Shown in pieces: positions 1,083 to 5,736 of a stretch of 9,019 nt of DNA. Within the stretch, counting starts at the first letter, position 1. Each line of letters opens with the position of its first letter. Under the pieces are notes generated by a model. The model saw only the letters and a list, made by a program, of their open reading frames with translations. It searched no databases and was not told where the DNA came from. Made by a program: the position numbers and the translations under genes. This DNA is from a virus (taxonomy: Duplodnaviria; Heunggongvirae; Uroviricota; Caudoviricetes): IMG/VR virus record IMGVR_UViG_2657245439_000015; one strand, written 5' to 3'.

Positions 1083-1183
1083 CGCCCGCTTTGCAGGGCG
1101 GTTTTAATGCAGTTGCACAGTCACGCTCAGGCCGCGCCGGGAATGGCGCGGTCTGCAGAAAATGAGGCAGGGAAACGCATGCA

Positions 1184-1216
1184 AAGCCATGCACCTTATC
1201 GATGCATGGCTTTTTT
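1184..1216 (+). terminator. Hairpin with T-tract between cos and the psu 3' end (intrinsic-terminator-like)
   Basis: AAGCCATGCA (1184-1193) pairs with TGCATGGCTT (1203-1212), loop of 9 nt, followed by TTTTTT on the plus strand and preceded by an A-run as seen from the minus strand. The U-tract is strong only for plus-strand transcripts; it may act weakly in both directions (the psu end is at 1247). Confidence 0.35.
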
Positions 1217-1246
1217 CAGTAAAAACGGGCGGATTTTCGGGGAATT

Positions 1247-1819
1247 TTACACAGACTGACGTGATGCCAGTTGCGCACTTTTACGCGAAAAAATCATGTT
1301 CTGCGCAGGGGTGAATTTTTCACGGCTGCCATCCACCGAAGCCGCGTCAGGCCTGAATCCGATGGTCGTTAAAATGTCGCTATCCTGTGCGGAATAATTA
1401 ATTTTTTCCCCCTTCGCAAGCCAGGACAGGAGGGCTTCACGCAGGGCATCTGTGGCACGCTGTATGGCACAGTTTCGGGCAATGGCCGTCAGCTCACTGT
1501 AGCCCATCAGCTCCGGTGCCAGTGCGGCCGCCAGTACTGTGCCGTGCTGCTGCATAAAATCATTCAGCCGGTCGCGGATGCTGATGTGCTGAACGGCTTC
1601 ATGCGAACGAATATAACGACTGGCGGCCTGATTCACCTGCCATTTTCTGACTTCGATAATATTGCGTAATTCGTCCAGGCGACTGACGTTTCTGCCTTCT
1701 CCTGACAGAAGCCGCAGGTATTCCTGTTCGGCCGCTGCCAGCTCATTTTTGCGTTGCAGCCATGCTGCTTTGTTATTCTGACAGGTGTCAAAGGCCTGCT
1801 GTAAGGCTGTGCTTTCCAT
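1247..1819 (-). CDS. psu: Psu, polarity suppression protein (P4 capsid decoration protein / Rho antagonist), 190 aa
   Basis: Complete ORF, ATG at 1819-1817, stop at 1249-1247. Length (190 aa) and position as the third gene of sid-delta-psu, next to cos, match P4 Psu. Recognised from family knowledge, not searched. Confidence 0.85.
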   Translation of the reverse strand: MESTALQQAFDTCQNNKAAWLQRKNELAAAEQEYLRLLSGEGRNVSRLDELRNIIEVRKWQVNQAASRYIRSHEAVQHISIRDRLNDFMQQHGTVLAAALAPELMGYSELTAIARNCAIQRATDALREALLSWLAKGEKINYSAQDSDILTTIGFRPDAASVDGSREKFTPAQNMIFSRKSAQLASRQSV

Positions 1820-1892
1820 CGTTATCTCTTTCTCATCATGCTGAAGAATAAAAATACGGTGTGCGGCGACGGCCGGGGTTAACCGGCAGCCC

Positions 1893-2393
1893 TCATTCCA
1901 GACGCAGCGAATATGATTGTGTTTTTAACCGTACTGGCGGCAGTTCCTGTTTTTCATGCAGGCGTTCTGCCAGTTCGTCCGGTGTGACCGGGCGGACAAT
2001 GAAGCGGTTGATGGTCTGAAGCGTTTTAAACACCAGACCACAGCCCGGATCCGTGCACACATAAAAACGCTCGGTGACTTCCTGAGACAGACGCCGCGAT
2101 GTTCTTGACAGTGCAAGGCCTTTACATCTCCGACAACAATATCCGGTAACAAGCATTCTTTTCGGGCGTTTCATGCTACCGGAGGCTGACGTCAGTGAAT
2201 CGCGGTATCTCTGTTTGCCTGAAATGTATTCCATTCCTGAATCTTTACAGTCAGAGAAAAAGCTTTCACTCGCTTCAAATGTCGCAGAGCAATAAATATT
2301 CCGGCACTGTGCAATCATTATCTTGGTGCCATCGTCCATGAAATGTGCGCGACGGGTGTGAGCAACATGTCCACACGACGGGCAGTAAATCAT
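1893..2393 (-). CDS. delta: Delta, late-gene transcriptional activator of the Ogr/Delta zinc-finger family, 166 aa (two Ogr-like modules in one chain)
   Basis: Translation shows two Cys-rich modules: CPSCG...CRNIYC near the N-terminus and CCRRCKG...CTDPGCG in the second half. Length 166 aa. Its ATG (2393-2391) overlaps the sid stop (2392-2390) as ATGA. Confidence 0.85.
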   Translation of the reverse strand: MIYCPSCGHVAHTRRAHFMDDGTKIMIAQCRNIYCSATFEASESFFSDCKDSGMEYISGKQRYRDSLTSASGSMKRPKRMLVTGYCCRRCKGLALSRTSRRLSQEVTERFYVCTDPGCGLVFKTLQTINRFIVRPVTPDELAERLHEKQELPPVRLKTQSYSLRLE

Positions 2394-3124
2394 GACAGCA
2401 GCCCTCTGGCCTTAAGCTCTGCTCCCTGCTGGTCTATTTTGTCCTGCCACACCTTGCGCTGTGCCGGTGTGCCAGCCACCTCATAATCCATGTGCGGAAG
2501 TGTTGCCGCTGACAGTCCGGTCAGCCGGAGAACCGGCTCGCCGCTGAGGCTGATTTGCATCTGTTTAATTTTCTGTTCCAGCGATGATTTCACCTGCTGC
2601 ATGACAGCCTTATCGGGTGCGACGTAGCCCTGATGGCCGGTGGTGTTGGCGAGCGGATTTTCCTGTACCAGAATGCTCAGATGCATTGCCCGGACAAGCG
2701 CCTCACAGGTTTCATTCAGGGCGTGTTCCAGCTCATGCTCTGCATACAGACTCAGAAGGTGATGATGTGCCTTCCGGTAGGCGGTGGCCGTGCTGTCACA
2801 CGCCCCTTTCAGGCGTTCACGTTCAAAATTCAGCACCACGGCCAGATTGTCATATTCCTGTACCAGCTCCCGGCGTGCCACGCGCTCAATGTGGCGCTGT
2901 TTCAGCTCGTCGCTCAGGACACCACCGGCTGCACGAAAGGCTGTGCGCCAGTCATCAGCGTCATTTCCGTCGGCCTGCGCCAGCGCATTTTTTTCCTGCT
3001 CTGCCCGTTCAATGGCCGTGACGGTCTCATCCATCAGTCGGGCGTTCTCAAGGTGGGCGGCTCTGGCCTTTTCCAGTTGTGCCAGTGCGGGTTGCAGATA
3101 TTCAGGGATGGTGTTGTCAGACAT
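2390..3124 (-). CDS. sid: Sid, capsid size-determination (external scaffold) protein, 244 aa
   Basis: The track ORF 2390..3142 starts at a GTG; the ATG at 3124-3122 (MSDNTIPEYL...) is preceded by GAGGAG and gives 244 aa, the length I recall for P4 Sid. First gene of the late operon, downstream of a TGT-N12-ACA activator dyad. Confidence 0.85.
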   Translation of the reverse strand: MSDNTIPEYLQPALAQLEKARAAHLENARLMDETVTAIERAEQEKNALAQADGNDADDWRTAFRAAGGVLSDELKQRHIERVARRELVQEYDNLAVVLNFERERLKGACDSTATAYRKAHHHLLSLYAEHELEHALNETCEALVRAMHLSILVQENPLANTTGHQGYVAPDKAVMQQVKSSLEQKIKQMQISLSGEPVLRLTGLSAATLPHMDYEVAGTPAQRKVWQDKIDQQGAELKARGLLS

Positions 3125-3149
3125 TTTCCGGCTCCTCGTCACTTCAGGT

Positions 3150-3214
3150 TAAGAAAATTGTGACGTACACCGGACAACAACACGACGCATTGCAGATGTG
3201 CCAGCCCTGACACA
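3150..3214 (-). promoter_or_regulatory. P_sid-like late promoter with Ogr/Delta-type activator dyad TGT-N12-ACA (3197-3214) and -10-like CACAAT (minus strand; plus 3157-3162)
   Basis: Dyad TGT gccagccctgac ACA at 3197-3214; its centre sits ~55 nt upstream of the transcription start predicted from the -10-like element, the geometry of P2/P4 late promoters. A second TGT-N12-ACA at 3159-3176 overlaps the -10 region. Confidence 0.5.
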
Positions 3215-3293
3215 GGAGACTCATCCTCACACCGGCAAGCCAGGAAAAGGTCGCAGGAAAAACCGGCTTACTGTTTGTTTTTTTATATTTTAC

Positions 3294-3397
3294 TGTTCAC
3301 CTCTGTTCACCATAAGAAAAAAGATAAGTAATACAGTAAGTTAAAGGGTGAACAATCGCAGTAATGACTGTTCACCGTCTGTTCACCACTGTTCACC
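3294..3397. repeat. ori1-like iteron cluster: six copies of TGTTCACC/GGTGAACA (alpha-protein binding sites)
   Basis: TGTTCACC at 3294-3301, 3304-3311, 3369-3376, 3380-3387, 3390-3397 and inverted GGTGAACA at 3347-3354; several are spaced ~10-11 bp apart. AT-rich flanks. The same octamer recurs in the repeats at 8121-8418. Lies between the divergent late promoters. Confidence 0.6.
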
Positions 3398-3555
3398 CGC
3401 TCATGGACTTTTTGTGCTGTTTACTACTGTTTATTTTTATTAATTCACTGAAATAAATAAGAAAAAACAATTTGTATTTCACTATAAAAAATTCCAGGTC
3501 CTTCAGAACCCTTTGAGACCCTTCAAGTCCGGATGGATAAAAAACACACAGCCAT

Positions 3556-3620
3556 TGTAAGGCTGCCGGCACAAATCCCCCCTGTTGCGTCTGCTGAAAA
3601 TATTCACAAAATAAAGCGCT
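3556..3620 (+). promoter_or_regulatory. P_LL-like late promoter of the left operon: TGT-N12-ACA dyad (3556-3573) with -10-like CACAAAAT (~3605-3612)
   Basis: Dyad TGT aaggctgccggc ACA; the -10-like element is again ~43 nt from the dyad centre, and its TCACAA core resembles the one at P_sid. Predicted start ~3619, about 395 nt upstream of the predicted P_LE start, matching the ~400-nt spacing recalled for P4 P_LL and P_LE. Confidence 0.45.
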
Positions 3621-3675
3621 ACCCGAAGCCGGACGGACTTATCCGGTGCTGTATGGACATTAACGAGGTAGCCCG

Positions 3676-3942
3676 ATGCAAGCTGTTTTTTCTTCCCCGT
3701 CTCCCGCCCCTGTGACGCCACTGATGCCGCTGCCGGACATCACACAGGAGCGTTTTTTACGTCTTCCGGAAGTGATGCACCTGTGCGGCCTGTCACGCTC
3801 GACCATCTACGAACTCATCCGTAAGGGGGAATTTCCGCCGCAGGTGAGTCTTGGCGGTAAAAATGTGGCCTGGCTGCACTCTGAAGTCACCGCATGGATG
3901 GCCGGACGCATTGCCGGACGCAAACGGGGGTACGACGCATGA
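3676..3942 (+). CDS. vis: Vis/AlpA-family small DNA-binding regulator (excisionase-like HTH), 88 aa
   Basis: ATG at 3676 preceded by GAGG. The translation contains an AlpA-type HTH segment ([44 protein letters not shown]). Length 88 aa and position as the first gene after the late promoter match P4 orf88 (vis). Confidence 0.85.
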
Positions 3943-3977
3943 TGATGCCCGCTCTGCAAAAACTCCCTTTTTCTGGC

Positions 3978-4007
3978 TTGCCTTTTTCCGGCATTTGCGG
4001 ATATAGT
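3978..4007 (+). promoter_or_regulatory. Sigma70-like promoter (P_LE candidate): -35 TTGCCT (3978-3983), 18-nt spacer, -10 TATAGT (4002-4007)
   Basis: Read directly from the sequence. It lies just downstream of vis and upstream of the structured leader, the position of P_LE in P4. Confidence 0.45.
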
Positions 4008-4070
4008 TTTTCCGCTGCCGCAAAATCGGCAGCCGGGCGTGGAAACCCGAGCAATTCACAGGCGACATAT

Positions 4071-4092
4071 GACGCGCCATGCGTCTTTTTTT
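4071..4092 (+). terminator. Intrinsic-terminator-like hairpin in the leader: GACGC-GCCAT-GCGTC followed by T7
   Basis: 5-bp GC-rich stem (4071-4075 / 4081-4085), 5-nt loop, then TTTTTTT (4086-4092), about 75 nt downstream of the predicted P_LE start. Consistent with premature termination in a P4-type immunity leader; the stem is short, so strength is uncertain. Confidence 0.4.
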
Positions 4093-4239
4093 GTGTCGCA
4101 ATCAACGCCACAGAGCGCCAGATTATGGTGTGGTGTGTGGTCAGTCGTGCAGATGGCATTCCGTGCATCCTGCCCGCGTCCGCTCATTATGCCGCAGAGT
4201 CAATGGTAGCTCAGGCGGGGCAGCCTCCGGGCTGGCCGG

Positions 4240-4310
4240 TATCCTGTGAAGCCGGTATTTCCACCCCCGTCTGGGCTATCGCCATCGAGCGTGGAAACTC
4301 CGGCGATAGC
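4240..4310 (+). ncRNA. Candidate CI-like immunity RNA / leader RNA element (approximate boundaries)
   Basis: Two same-polarity boxes GCGTGGAAAC (4037-4046 and 4289-4298), with a partially complementary segment between them (GCCGGTATTTCCACCCCCG, ~4250-4268; TTTCCAC at 4258-4264). A perfect 9-bp stem (GCTATCGCC 4275-4283 / GGCGATAGC 4302-4310) presents the second box in an 18-nt loop. This resembles the seqA/seqB/seqC logic of P4 RNA immunity. Boundaries and processing sites cannot be set from sequence alone. Confidence 0.25.
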
Positions 4311-4340
4311 GTTATTTGCTATTCACAGGAGGCTGCCATC

Positions 4341-4538
4341 ATGGCTACAACCCTTACCCCCTCACACCCTGAATTTGTCTTTGTGTTTGCGGCTGTCCGT
4401 CGCGCAGACCGTCATCCCCGTATCTGCATGCTTCGCACCGTCGCCGGTGATGAACGCAGCGCCCGCCGTTCCCTTGTCCGTGACTATGTGCTCTCCCTTG
4501 CTGCCCGTCTGCCGGTGGTGGAGGTGTCCCGTGCGTAA
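4341..4538 (+). CDS. Kil/Icd-like small protein (host cell-division inhibitor-like), 65 aa
   Basis: ATG at 4341 preceded by AGGAGG (4327-4332). Translation [65 protein letters not shown] resembles what I recall of Icd-like proteins of P4-like elements. The track's longer in-frame ORF from 3894 would run through the promoter and leader and is probably not translated. Confidence 0.6.
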
Positions 4539-4818
4539 TAAAAAAGCCCCTCAGACCGTCTCAGCGCGTCATGACGCCCGTGAACACCTCAGCATTGAGG
4601 CTTACCATAAGCTCAACCGCGCCAGCGCCGTATCCCAGTTTGTTGGGGGTGATTTGATTCACCGTGAACTCTCCGGCCTGCATCAGCTCTACATTCCGCA
4701 TATTTTCAGCTACCTGAATGAAGATATTGATTTTGTGCTGAATGAGCTGAAAGCCAAAGGCCTGTGCCGCGATTTTCTCGCCCAGCAGAAAGACCGGGGA
4801 GACAGGACGCATGTTTGA
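4531..4818 (+). CDS. Small ORF, 95 codons with GTG start; possibly the epsilon/eta-position gene of the left operon
   Basis: The frame is open from 4246, but that would overlap the kil/icd-like gene. GTG at 4531 is preceded by GGAGG (4520-4524) and overlaps the upstream stop by 8 nt; its own stop overlaps the next ATG (ATGTTTGA at 4811-4818). No in-frame ATG downstream. Start choice and identity are uncertain. Confidence 0.45.
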
Positions 4819-5266
4819 TTTTCCCCAGCCCGGTGAGATTTACCGTTCTGCCGGTTTTCCCGATGTGGCCGTGGTCGGCATTCTGGAAGACGGTATTCCG
4901 TGGGAAATGCCGTACCGCTGCCCGGACATTGTCTGGAACCCGTACCGCCGTAAATTCAGTATCCTTGTGCGTATCCTCGCTGACGGACGCACCACAGACA
5001 TCCCGCTGGGGCGTTTTCTGCGGGAATTTACCTGTGACCGTCCTGACCTGTTTAAACGCAGCCCCGTAAACCGGCATGCGGTACTGAAAGAAATGGCCGG
5101 AGACCCGGAATTACAGAAATGGCGGGAAAAATATCTGGATATTTACCCGCAGGACACTGTTCCGGTCAGCCGGGCAGCACCGGTGGCGCGGGAATGGCGG
5201 GAAATTCCCCGCACGGAGCCTGACCCGGAAACCACCCCGGATAACAGTTACCGCAATTATCTGTAA
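4811..5266 (+). CDS. Hypothetical protein, 151 aa (P4 orf151-position protein)
   Basis: Complete ORF whose ATG is coupled to the upstream stop; the length equals that recalled for P4 orf151 in the same operon position. No recognisable catalytic motif. Confidence 0.7.
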   Translation: MFDFPQPGEIYRSAGFPDVAVVGILEDGIPWEMPYRCPDIVWNPYRRKFSILVRILADGRTTDIPLGRFLREFTCDRPDLFKRSPVNRHAVLKEMAGDPELQKWREKYLDIYPQDTVPVSRAAPVAREWREIPRTEPDPETTPDNSYRNYL

Positions 5267-5401
5267 TTAAAAAACGACACCCGAAAAATTAAATGTGCGT
5301 ATTCGCGCAGGGATACGCACGTCTTCAGGAGACGCAGATATGCCTTATCAGTTAATGCAACCGGCACGGAATGCAGTCATCTGTCACAGGGAGGAAAACA
5401 A

Positions 5402-5722
5402 ATGAAAACACCCTTACCGCCCGTCTTACGCGCTGCCCTTTACCGTCGCGCTGTCGCCTGTGCCTGGCTGACCGTGTGCGAACGTCAGCACCGCTACCCG
5501 CATCTCACCCTTGAGTCACTGGAGGCGGCCATCGCCGCTGAGCTGGAAGGCTTTTATCTGCGCCAGCACGGTGAGGAAAAAGGGCGTCAGATAGCCTGTG
5601 CCCTGCTGGAAGATTTAATGGAATCCGGCCCCCTGAAGGCCGCGCCGTCGCTGTCCTTTCTCGGGCTGGTTGTGATGGATGAACTCTGTGCCCGTCACAT
5701 AAAAGCGCCGGTACTGCACTGA
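5402..5722 (+). CDS. Hypothetical protein, 106 aa, immediately upstream of the primase (possibly Cnr-like copy-number regulator)
   Basis: ATG at 5402 preceded by GGGAGG (5388-5393); ends 15 nt before the alpha start. Size and position match the small gene upstream of alpha in P4. The cnr assignment is from memory and not confirmed. Confidence 0.65.
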
Positions 5723-5736
5723 AGGAGAACAACACC

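Follow-up and report, generated by a model that had tools for sequence, protein, structure and literature searches.

The leader upstream of kil in a P4-like satellite prophage: sequence evidence for the RNA-based immunity region of P4 in a common natural variant

The locus considered here raises the question of what lies between a sigma70-like promoter and the kil gene in a 9,019-nt viral sequence (IMG/VR record IMGVR_UViG_2657245439_000015; the whole stretch that was analyzed is called the window), where hairpins and repeated boxes share the same DNA with long open reading frames. A preliminary description, made from the sequence without database searches, had read positions 3978-4340 as a structured untranslated leader resembling the RNA-based immunity of satellite phage P4. 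It had taken the overlapping reading frames for probably spurious and had allowed for a diverged variant, as the complementarity appeared imperfect. Comparison with P4 gave a firmer answer. The 1.2 kb at 3600-4800 are 98.5% identical to P4 (X02534, X51522, NC_001609), and window positions 1083-8416 are colinear with P4 coordinates 11624 to 4291 at 98.2% identity over 7.3 kb, a part that holds psu, delta, sid, ori, orf88/vis, the immunity region, epsilon, orf151, orf106, alpha and crr. Three Rfam families scored above their gathering thresholds, namely the C4 antisense RNA (RF01695; 76.6 bits vs. 45; model positions 1-87 of 87, window 4199-4286), isrK (RF01394; 74.9 bits vs. 50; window 4014-4091) and, by a narrow margin, c4-a1b1 (RF03163; 50.2 bits vs. 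46.7; window 4001-4053). In the P4 field, the structural homologs of IsrK and C4 go by the names seqA and CI RNA (PMC3632133, PMC4825925). Alignment to the characterized P4 region recovered all P4 immunity elements in the same order: promoter PLE, the seqA (IsrK-like) leader with its terminator, the CI (C4-type) antisense RNA, the seqC hairpin and then kil. The genes 3′ of kil (epsilon, orf151, orf106, alpha) also follow as in P4. Taken together, the 98.5% identity and the three families above threshold go beyond mere resemblance and indicate that 3978-4340, judged by its sequence, is P4's RNA-based immunity region itself, in a common natural variant. The P4-type RNA immunity system encountered here is already known, and its mechanism is unchanged by the present data. 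Chromosomal copies of similar sequence occur in 1040 of 5426 complete E. coli genomes.

The P4-colinear part is flanked by non-P4 sequence at 1-1082 and 8417-9019. The left end lies beyond cos/psu, at the known variable cargo position of P4-like satellites, and its small ORFs had no Pfam matches. The right end has a weak Arm-DNA-binding match at 8666-9001 and matches integrase-domain genes in E. coli. Rfam matches to IsrM and Atu_L1 at 8286-8641 were far under their thresholds and were dismissed; the partial IsrM match (8451-8641) reached 45.8 bits vs. a gathering threshold of 376 and was treated as noise.

The features of the locus, with the basis for each assignment, are as follows.

3676..3942, plus strand: orf88/vis, an AlpA-type regulator (P4 annotation and PGAP annotation in E. 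coli)
3939..4538, plus strand: eta, 199 codons, spanning PLE and every RNA element (PGAP, Pfam, NCBIfam, open frame)
3978..4007, plus strand: promoter PLE, with TTGCCT (3978-3983), an 18-nt spacer and TATAGT (4002-4007)
4014..4092, plus strand: seqA/IsrK-like leader RNA (Rfam isrK and c4-a1b1), from the presumed transcription start to the end of the terminator U-tract
4014..4033, plus strand: 5′ hairpin of 7 bp, GCUGCCG/CGGCAGC, with loop CAAAAU (covariation)
4034..4049, plus strand: seqA hairpin of 4 bp whose loop displays box 1, CI-pairing residues 4035-4045 (Rfam, covariation)
4054..4062, plus strand: leader copy of box 2, ATTCACAGG, target of the CI major-hairpin loop (repeat search, covariation)
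4071..4092, plus strand: Rho-independent terminator, GACGCG/UGCGUC followed by U7 (terminator-like by scan)
4093..4198, plus strand: variable spacer between the two conserved RNA blocks, within eta (alignment of homologs)
4204..4282, plus strand: CI RNA, a C4-type antisense RNA (Rfam C4), with predicted mature ends
4243..4250, plus strand: box 2′ in the CI loop, CCUGUGAA, pairing with 4055-4062 and 4322-4329
4258..4268, plus strand: seqB (UUUCCAC-CCC), pairing with seqA 4035-4045 and seqC 4287-4297
4275..4310, plus strand: seqC hairpin, 9 bp (4275-4283/4302-4310), with box 1 at 4287-4297 in an 18-nt loop (covariation)
4321..4332, plus strand: kil copy of box 2, ATTCACAGG (4321-4329), overlapping the kil Shine-Dalgarno AGGAGG (4327-4332)
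4341..4538, plus strand: kil, 65 codons, an Icd-like cell-division inhibitor forming the last part of eta (NCBIfam NF033153, 76.1 bits)

Several elements that the preliminary description had picked out in the first half of the region were recovered at the same positions. The sigma70-like promoter was the sole such site in a scan of 3400-4700, a yield not above chance (1 found vs. 1.0 expected). Its TATAGT coincides with the -10 annotated in P4 record X02534, and the promoter is conserved in homologs, with TTGCNT in 88 of 93, TA[TC]AGT in 92 of 93 and the 18-nt spacer in 90 of 93. Folded alone, the seqA leader is not unusually stable (z = -1.0). In its 5′ hairpin 99.8% of cells are paired over the homologous leaders, with both-side changes in 5/7 pairs. 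The T7-tailed hairpin was scored terminator-like, and its stem shows G-C to C-G compensation in 12 sequences; we take it to be the terminator t1 of the P4 literature. According to what is reported of the work of Briani et al. in 2000, t1 is a Rho-independent terminator between PLE and cI, enhanced by CI and seqA, that serves CI autoregulation. The two same-polarity boxes are also as described, GCGTGGAAAC having its only two copies in the window at 4037-4046 and 4289-4298 (vs. 0.04 expected by chance; 0/200 shuffles gave two). A second repeat had been missed by the first reading: ATTCACAGG is found at both 4054-4062 and 4321-4329, with a chance expectation of 0.06.

Unlike the rest of the stem, which covaries, the loop and closing pair of the 5′ hairpin (4020-4027) are near-invariant. 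All 86 leaders share GCAAA, U and C, and 85 keep the fourth A, with an A-to-C change in L022. The same invariant loop is present in the Rfam isrK and c4-a1b1 consensus, and neither a partner nor a function for it was found in these two models or in the 86-leader alignment.

The second half of the region is dominated by CI, which combines a 17-bp stalk (4204-4220/4265-4281) with a minor hairpin (4221-4234) and a major hairpin (4235-4256). Folded alone, CI has an MFE of -49.3 kcal/mol (z = -5.4), and the MFE fold reproduces the C4 architecture, in which a long stalk surrounds minor and major hairpins and a single-stranded recognition segment lies 3′ of the major hairpin. Over 86 sequences, 100% of cells are paired in the stalk and both hairpins; the stalk and minor hairpin also contain compensated pairs. 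The segment earlier noted as partially complementary to the box was located, and its core is seqB. Between seqB and seqA, 10/11 pairs form around one conserved C.C mismatch exactly as in P4, so that the complementarity is no more imperfect than P4's own. The loop of the major hairpin, CCUGUGAA, is complementary to ATTCACAGG, pairing with the stretch UUCACAGG both 3′ of seqA and next to the ribosome-binding site of kil. The perfect 9-bp stem with the second box in its 18-nt loop was likewise upheld; the seqC hairpin is 99.4% paired over the homologs, with 4/9 pairs compensated. With its U-rich tail, it is a candidate part of terminator t4. In the work of Briani et al. from 2000, t4 is reportedly located between cI and the Rho-dependent timm. 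The 3′ arm of the CI stalk and the 5′ arm of the seqC hairpin share positions 4275-4281, which makes the two folds mutually exclusive. Positions 4279 and 4281 covary with their partners in both (44:42 splits), indicating that both alternative folds are under selection. The MFE fold of the whole leader mixed the elements into long-range pairings and was set aside; the family structures were tested by covariation.

Homologs were collected with the Eta protein as bait; species-representative genomes yielded 54 loci and viral contigs another 80, and 86 distinct leaders equivalent to 4008-4345 were aligned. Nucleotide conservation falls into two blocks, 3960-4098 and 4202-4360, with the variable spacer between them. 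In the set of intramolecular helices (5′ hairpin, seqA hairpin, terminator, CI stalk, CI minor and major hairpins) 99.8% of cells were paired, with both-side changes in 17/44 pairs, vs. 30-44% pairing in slid controls. The intermolecular pairings behaved in the same way. CI paired with its seqA-side targets in 98.6% of cells (both-side changes in 12/18 pairs; slid controls 44-57%), where no shuffle matched the observed pairing or covariation score, and with its seqC/kil-side targets in 98.8% of cells (12/17 pairs compensated; slid controls 35-45%). Two modules are involved. The first consists of seqB (4258-4268, the single strand of CI together with the top of its stalk) and its partners 4035-4045 and 4287-4297. 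In the second, the CI loop 4243-4250 has one partner immediately 3′ of the seqA hairpin, 4055-4062, and another, 4322-4329, at the kil Shine-Dalgarno. CI is thus complementary to an upstream (seqA) and a downstream (seqC) site on one transcript, as is typical of P4. The covariation check that the preliminary description had proposed was therefore passed decisively, for the helices and for the CI-target pairings alike. Its logic of two boxes and a complementary segment stood, and what it lacked was the second interaction module, CCUGUGAA with box 2. Like the sequence identity and the membership in RNA families, the structures and the covariation of the helices and of both intermolecular modules are direct observations.

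Five box-1 types and 13 box-2 types were distinguished in the alignment, each changing in concert at three sites, and they occur in 28 combinations. Zero mismatches over all 35 intermolecular pairs were found in 61/86 leaders, and in a cross-type table of duplexes the cognate duplex was the most stable in every row and column. In three hybrids (L067, L084, L038) the seqA-side boxes are non-cognate to their own CI, whereas on the seqC/kil side the boxes match in every case. The pattern points to recombination within the variable spacer, and to tighter linkage or selection on the seqC side. About eight genomes carry several elements, and most of these hold satellites of differing immunity types, as chance expects given 28 combinations; one genome (L057/L060) carries the same immunity type twice.

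The preliminary description fared less evenly on the reading frames. It had called the overlapping ORFs spurious, which is true of two on the minus strand and not of the one on the plus strand. The listed ORF 3894..4538 shares its frame with kil and has a conserved start at 3939, where the vis stop overlaps the eta start codon (ATGA, 3939-3942); the first ATG is at the 3939 position in most divergent homologs and at 3894 in close relatives. PGAP annotates the equivalent of 3939..4538 as an Icd-like protein in E. coli genomes. In 83/86 homologs the eta frame runs without interruption from a point upstream of the promoter through to the kil stop, block (multi-nucleotide) indels in the spacer are all multiples of three, and the frame-breaking exceptions are a few single-nucleotide indels (L040, L044, L046). 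Eta matches Pfam PF10554 (Phage_ASH) with 94.1 bits vs. a cut-off of 26 over residues 22-146, and Kil matches NCBIfam NF033153 (Icd-like), with 72-76 bits for Eta/Kil vs. a cut-off of 25. Variable columns by codon position number 19/10/47 of 59 in kil, while the eta-specific spacer 4093-4198 shows no codon-position signature, with 16/22/20 of ~35 variable columns. Selection on amino acids is seen in kil only. Upstream of kil, what is conserved appears to be translation as such and not the amino-acid sequence. On the codon-position tests, we rejected both the reading of the eta N-terminus as a conserved protein domain, for which the eta-specific part gives no codon-position signal, and the reading of the eta frame as meaningless. 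The minus-strand ORFs 3793..4101 and 3887..4168 were rejected as genes, since their spans are erratic among homologs (147-855 nt open vs. a steady ~550-650 nt for eta), and they had no Pfam or NCBIfam matches.

That the leader is untranslated, as first described, also holds in part. PLE transcripts start downstream of the eta start codon, and the leader is therefore untranslated on these transcripts only; on transcripts from the upstream late promoter PLL, eta is translated through the leader according to the literature. A passage of PMC10111431 that cites Forti 1999 states that eta is translated only from PLL, coupled to the alpA homolog, that Kil is a truncated form of Eta, and that translation of eta prevents termination. 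The Phage_ASH match (Eta residues 22-146, window 4002-4376) covers exactly the stretch that encodes the seqA, CI and seqC RNAs, and this family may largely model translated RNA genes instead of a conserved protein domain. In the P4 RefSeq record NC_001609, 8168..8584 (window 4122-4538) is still labelled "transcriptional repressor" (cI gene product, AA 1-137). This cI gene product is a historical protein reading of the eta/kil frame; the immunity factor is RNA, and the real translated products are Eta and Kil.

Two other explanations of the region were weighed against an RNA that acts in trans. One holds that the immunity factor is a protein, encoded by the 137-codon cI/ash frame (4125..4538), and that hairpins and boxes are incidental. 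It draws on P4 records that annotate a 4125..4538 CDS as cI or ash and on the Phage_ASH match of Eta. We consider it extremely improbable, as the frame upstream of kil lacks the codon-position bias that kil itself displays (16/22/20 vs. 19/10/47), no Shine-Dalgarno precedes the ATG at 4125, conservation is concentrated in blocks that match the RNA elements and not the protein, and the three-way compensatory changes freely alter the encoded amino acids. A stop codon after 4125 that kept the RNA pairing is also said to have been made in P4 and to have left immunity intact. Moreover, the immunity factor has been identified as a processed RNA (PMC4825925, PMC5499578). The other explanation dispenses with a trans-acting small RNA and makes the leader a cis-only attenuator that works through the alternative folds of seqC hairpin and CI stalk. 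The sharing of 4275-4281 by these two structures and the covariation of both alternatives speak for it. Such a model accounts neither for the covariation of two distant target sets with the same elements of CI nor for the stalk that resembles an RNase P substrate, and the trans-acting immunity published for P4 prophages (PMC4825925) contradicts it. It is, in our judgement, highly unlikely.

We consider it very probable, instead, that the region is the lysogeny-maintenance (immunity) switch of a P4 satellite prophage. Under this explanation, the constitutive PLE would initiate transcription near 4014 and yield a transcript composed of the seqA leader (two hairpins and t1, 4014-4092), the spacer, the cloverleaf-like CI (~4204-4282), the seqC hairpin and the kil ribosome-binding site, the exact RNA ends being predicted. 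CI would be excised from the PLE transcript and accumulate. Mature CI of P4 is a stable RNA of about 79 nt. For CI processing, for termination and for the role of eta translation, our account follows the literature; release of CI from the leader transcript involves RNase P and trimming of the 3′ end, according to a passage of PMC5499578 that cites Forti 1995. The accumulated CI would pair in trans with new PLE transcripts via its two separate elements, single-stranded seqB (4258-4268) binding box 1 in seqA and seqC, and the major-hairpin loop (4243-4250) binding box 2 after seqA and over the kil Shine-Dalgarno. Premature termination and a block of kil translation would follow. Pairing of the CI loop over the kil Shine-Dalgarno would keep ribosomes off kil and expose the transcript to Rho, so that downstream Rho-dependent termination would keep epsilon to alpha, the replication genes, switched off. 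When transcription comes from the late promoter further upstream, the transcripts would carry the eta start (3939), and the ribosomes translating eta would cross the leader and override the block. In P4, CI acts as an antisense RNA on seqA and seqC, causing premature termination and keeping the replication genes off in lysogens (PMC4825925), and P4-like prophages of S. Typhi need the IsrK-like part (PMC3632133).

Although locus, order, structures and flanking genes are those of the P4 immunity region (PLE - seqA - cI/seqB - seqC - kil/eta) worked out by Deho, Ghisotti and co-workers, the seqA, seqB and seqC boxes are not identical to P4's, and the window belongs to a different box-1 type. Its box 1 differs by dinucleotide swaps at three sites, reading GA vs. 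AG at 4042-43 (seqA), TC vs. CT at 4260-61 (seqB) and GA vs. AG at 4294-95 (seqC). The three swaps keep the pairing within the window's own element. Box 2 and all helices are identical between window and P4, and 3978-4340 holds four other single-base differences, at 4013, 4014, 4080 and 4106. The suspicion of a diverged variant is accordingly right in that the boxes depart from P4's; the departure is a compensated swap and not decay. The variant is common, since the exact window type (65-nt CI core plus seqC) was found in 137/5426 complete E. coli genomes; the exact P4 type was found in 267. At 4013-4014 (X02534 2378-2379) P4 reads GC, while the window and 84 other leaders keep a closing G-C/G-U pair, so that P4 alone is unpaired at the base pair closing the 5′ hairpin. 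The P4 GC is probably an error in the 1980s sequence.

Because the swap is compensated in seqA, seqB and seqC, a changed immunity specificity is expected, and that of the window is predicted to be at least partly distinct from P4's. With P4's non-cognate partner the predicted stability of the seqA duplex falls from -16.6 to -12.0 kcal/mol, and that of the seqC duplex from -9.5 to -4.9 kcal/mol. As box 2 is identical to P4's, cross-immunity may be merely weakened and not abolished. It is even conceivable, though on balance we find it unlikely, that the element is homoimmune with P4 and that the swap is a pair of changes fixed by neutral drift, the swapped box 1 still forming a duplex with P4 targets. 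The shared box-2 module and the -12.0 kcal/mol that the non-cognate seqA duplex retains favor this reading, and the natural hybrids with non-cognate seqA sides imply that partial mismatch is tolerated. Against it, three sites have changed in concert, and the pattern recurs for five box-1 types almost without intermediates, which points to selection on exact pairing; the drop in the non-cognate seqC duplex also argues against homoimmunity. Single-base mutations in seqB, seqA or seqC are said, in work by Sabbattini from 1995, to alter P4 immunity, which would likewise count against it. Turning to the reading with a distinct specificity, we give about even weight to a wider proposal. In this proposal P4-like satellites would carry a two-part RNA address, made of the seqB strand and the major-hairpin loop, whose parts reassort freely and so generate many heteroimmune classes, the window's element forming one such class without cross-immunity to P4; the sole reason for an open eta-specific frame would be the transit of ribosomes that override CI, and not the encoded protein. 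The principle of heteroimmune RNA types is established for P4/phiR73 and P1/P7. No survey of two-module box diversity was found in the searchable literature, and a large census of P4-like elements (PMC8628076) makes no mention of "CI RNA", "antisense" or "seqB". The two-module diversity and the open but unconstrained eta frame may perhaps have gone unsurveyed before.

Other systems share parts of this design. Retronphage phiR73 reportedly has a P4-type CI/seqA/seqC set with a specificity of its own and is heteroimmune with P4, as Sabbattini et al. are said to have described in 1996 (in Virology 216:389). The phiR73 sequence was absent among the phage-collection matches to 3600-4800, and unlike phiR73 the window has no retron within its 9 kb. 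The P1/P7 immI operon (c4 antisense RNA - icd - ant) belongs to the same Rfam families, C4 and c4-a1b1, and resembles the window in having target copies on both sides of the RNA and an Icd-like first downstream gene. Its c4 is described, in a passage of PMC8198154 and by Citron & Schuster 1990, as a processed RNA in the leader of the operon it represses, with two recognition elements. P1 controls the antirepressor ant under the protein repressor C1, whereas P4 controls a replication operon without a protein repressor, and in P4, unlike P1, the whole leader lies inside a translatable frame, eta. In Salmonella Gifsy-1 (IsrK/STnc1160), IsrK is a structural homolog of the seqA leader with the same Rho-independent terminator and with short and read-through isoforms, but here the short isoform stimulates translation of the read-through one, the orf45-anrP mRNA, and STnc1160 has only been suggested to act as a CI-like repressor (PMC4825925). 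The telomere phages N15, phiKO2 and PY54 are a different type of element from the window. The CI-to-icd segment of the window shows weak DNA similarity to phiKO2, PY54 and relatives, with 70-79% identity over ~100-230 nt, and in the N15-type anti-immunity system a processed small RNA controls an antirepressor operon, according to the account of Ravin 1999 given in PMC7567579.

The value of these findings lies mainly in annotation. The region should be labelled as a P4 immunity locus (seqA/IsrK-like RNA, CI RNA, seqC, eta/kil), and neither as a "transcriptional repressor" protein nor as spurious ORFs. The comparative data also provide an unusually clean natural case of an antisense RNA that co-evolves with two targets via two recognition elements independent of each other. 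The same data suggest numerous immunity classes among the many P4-like satellites of Enterobacterales; if this is true, it would bear on which satellites can coexist in a cell and which exclude each other from it.
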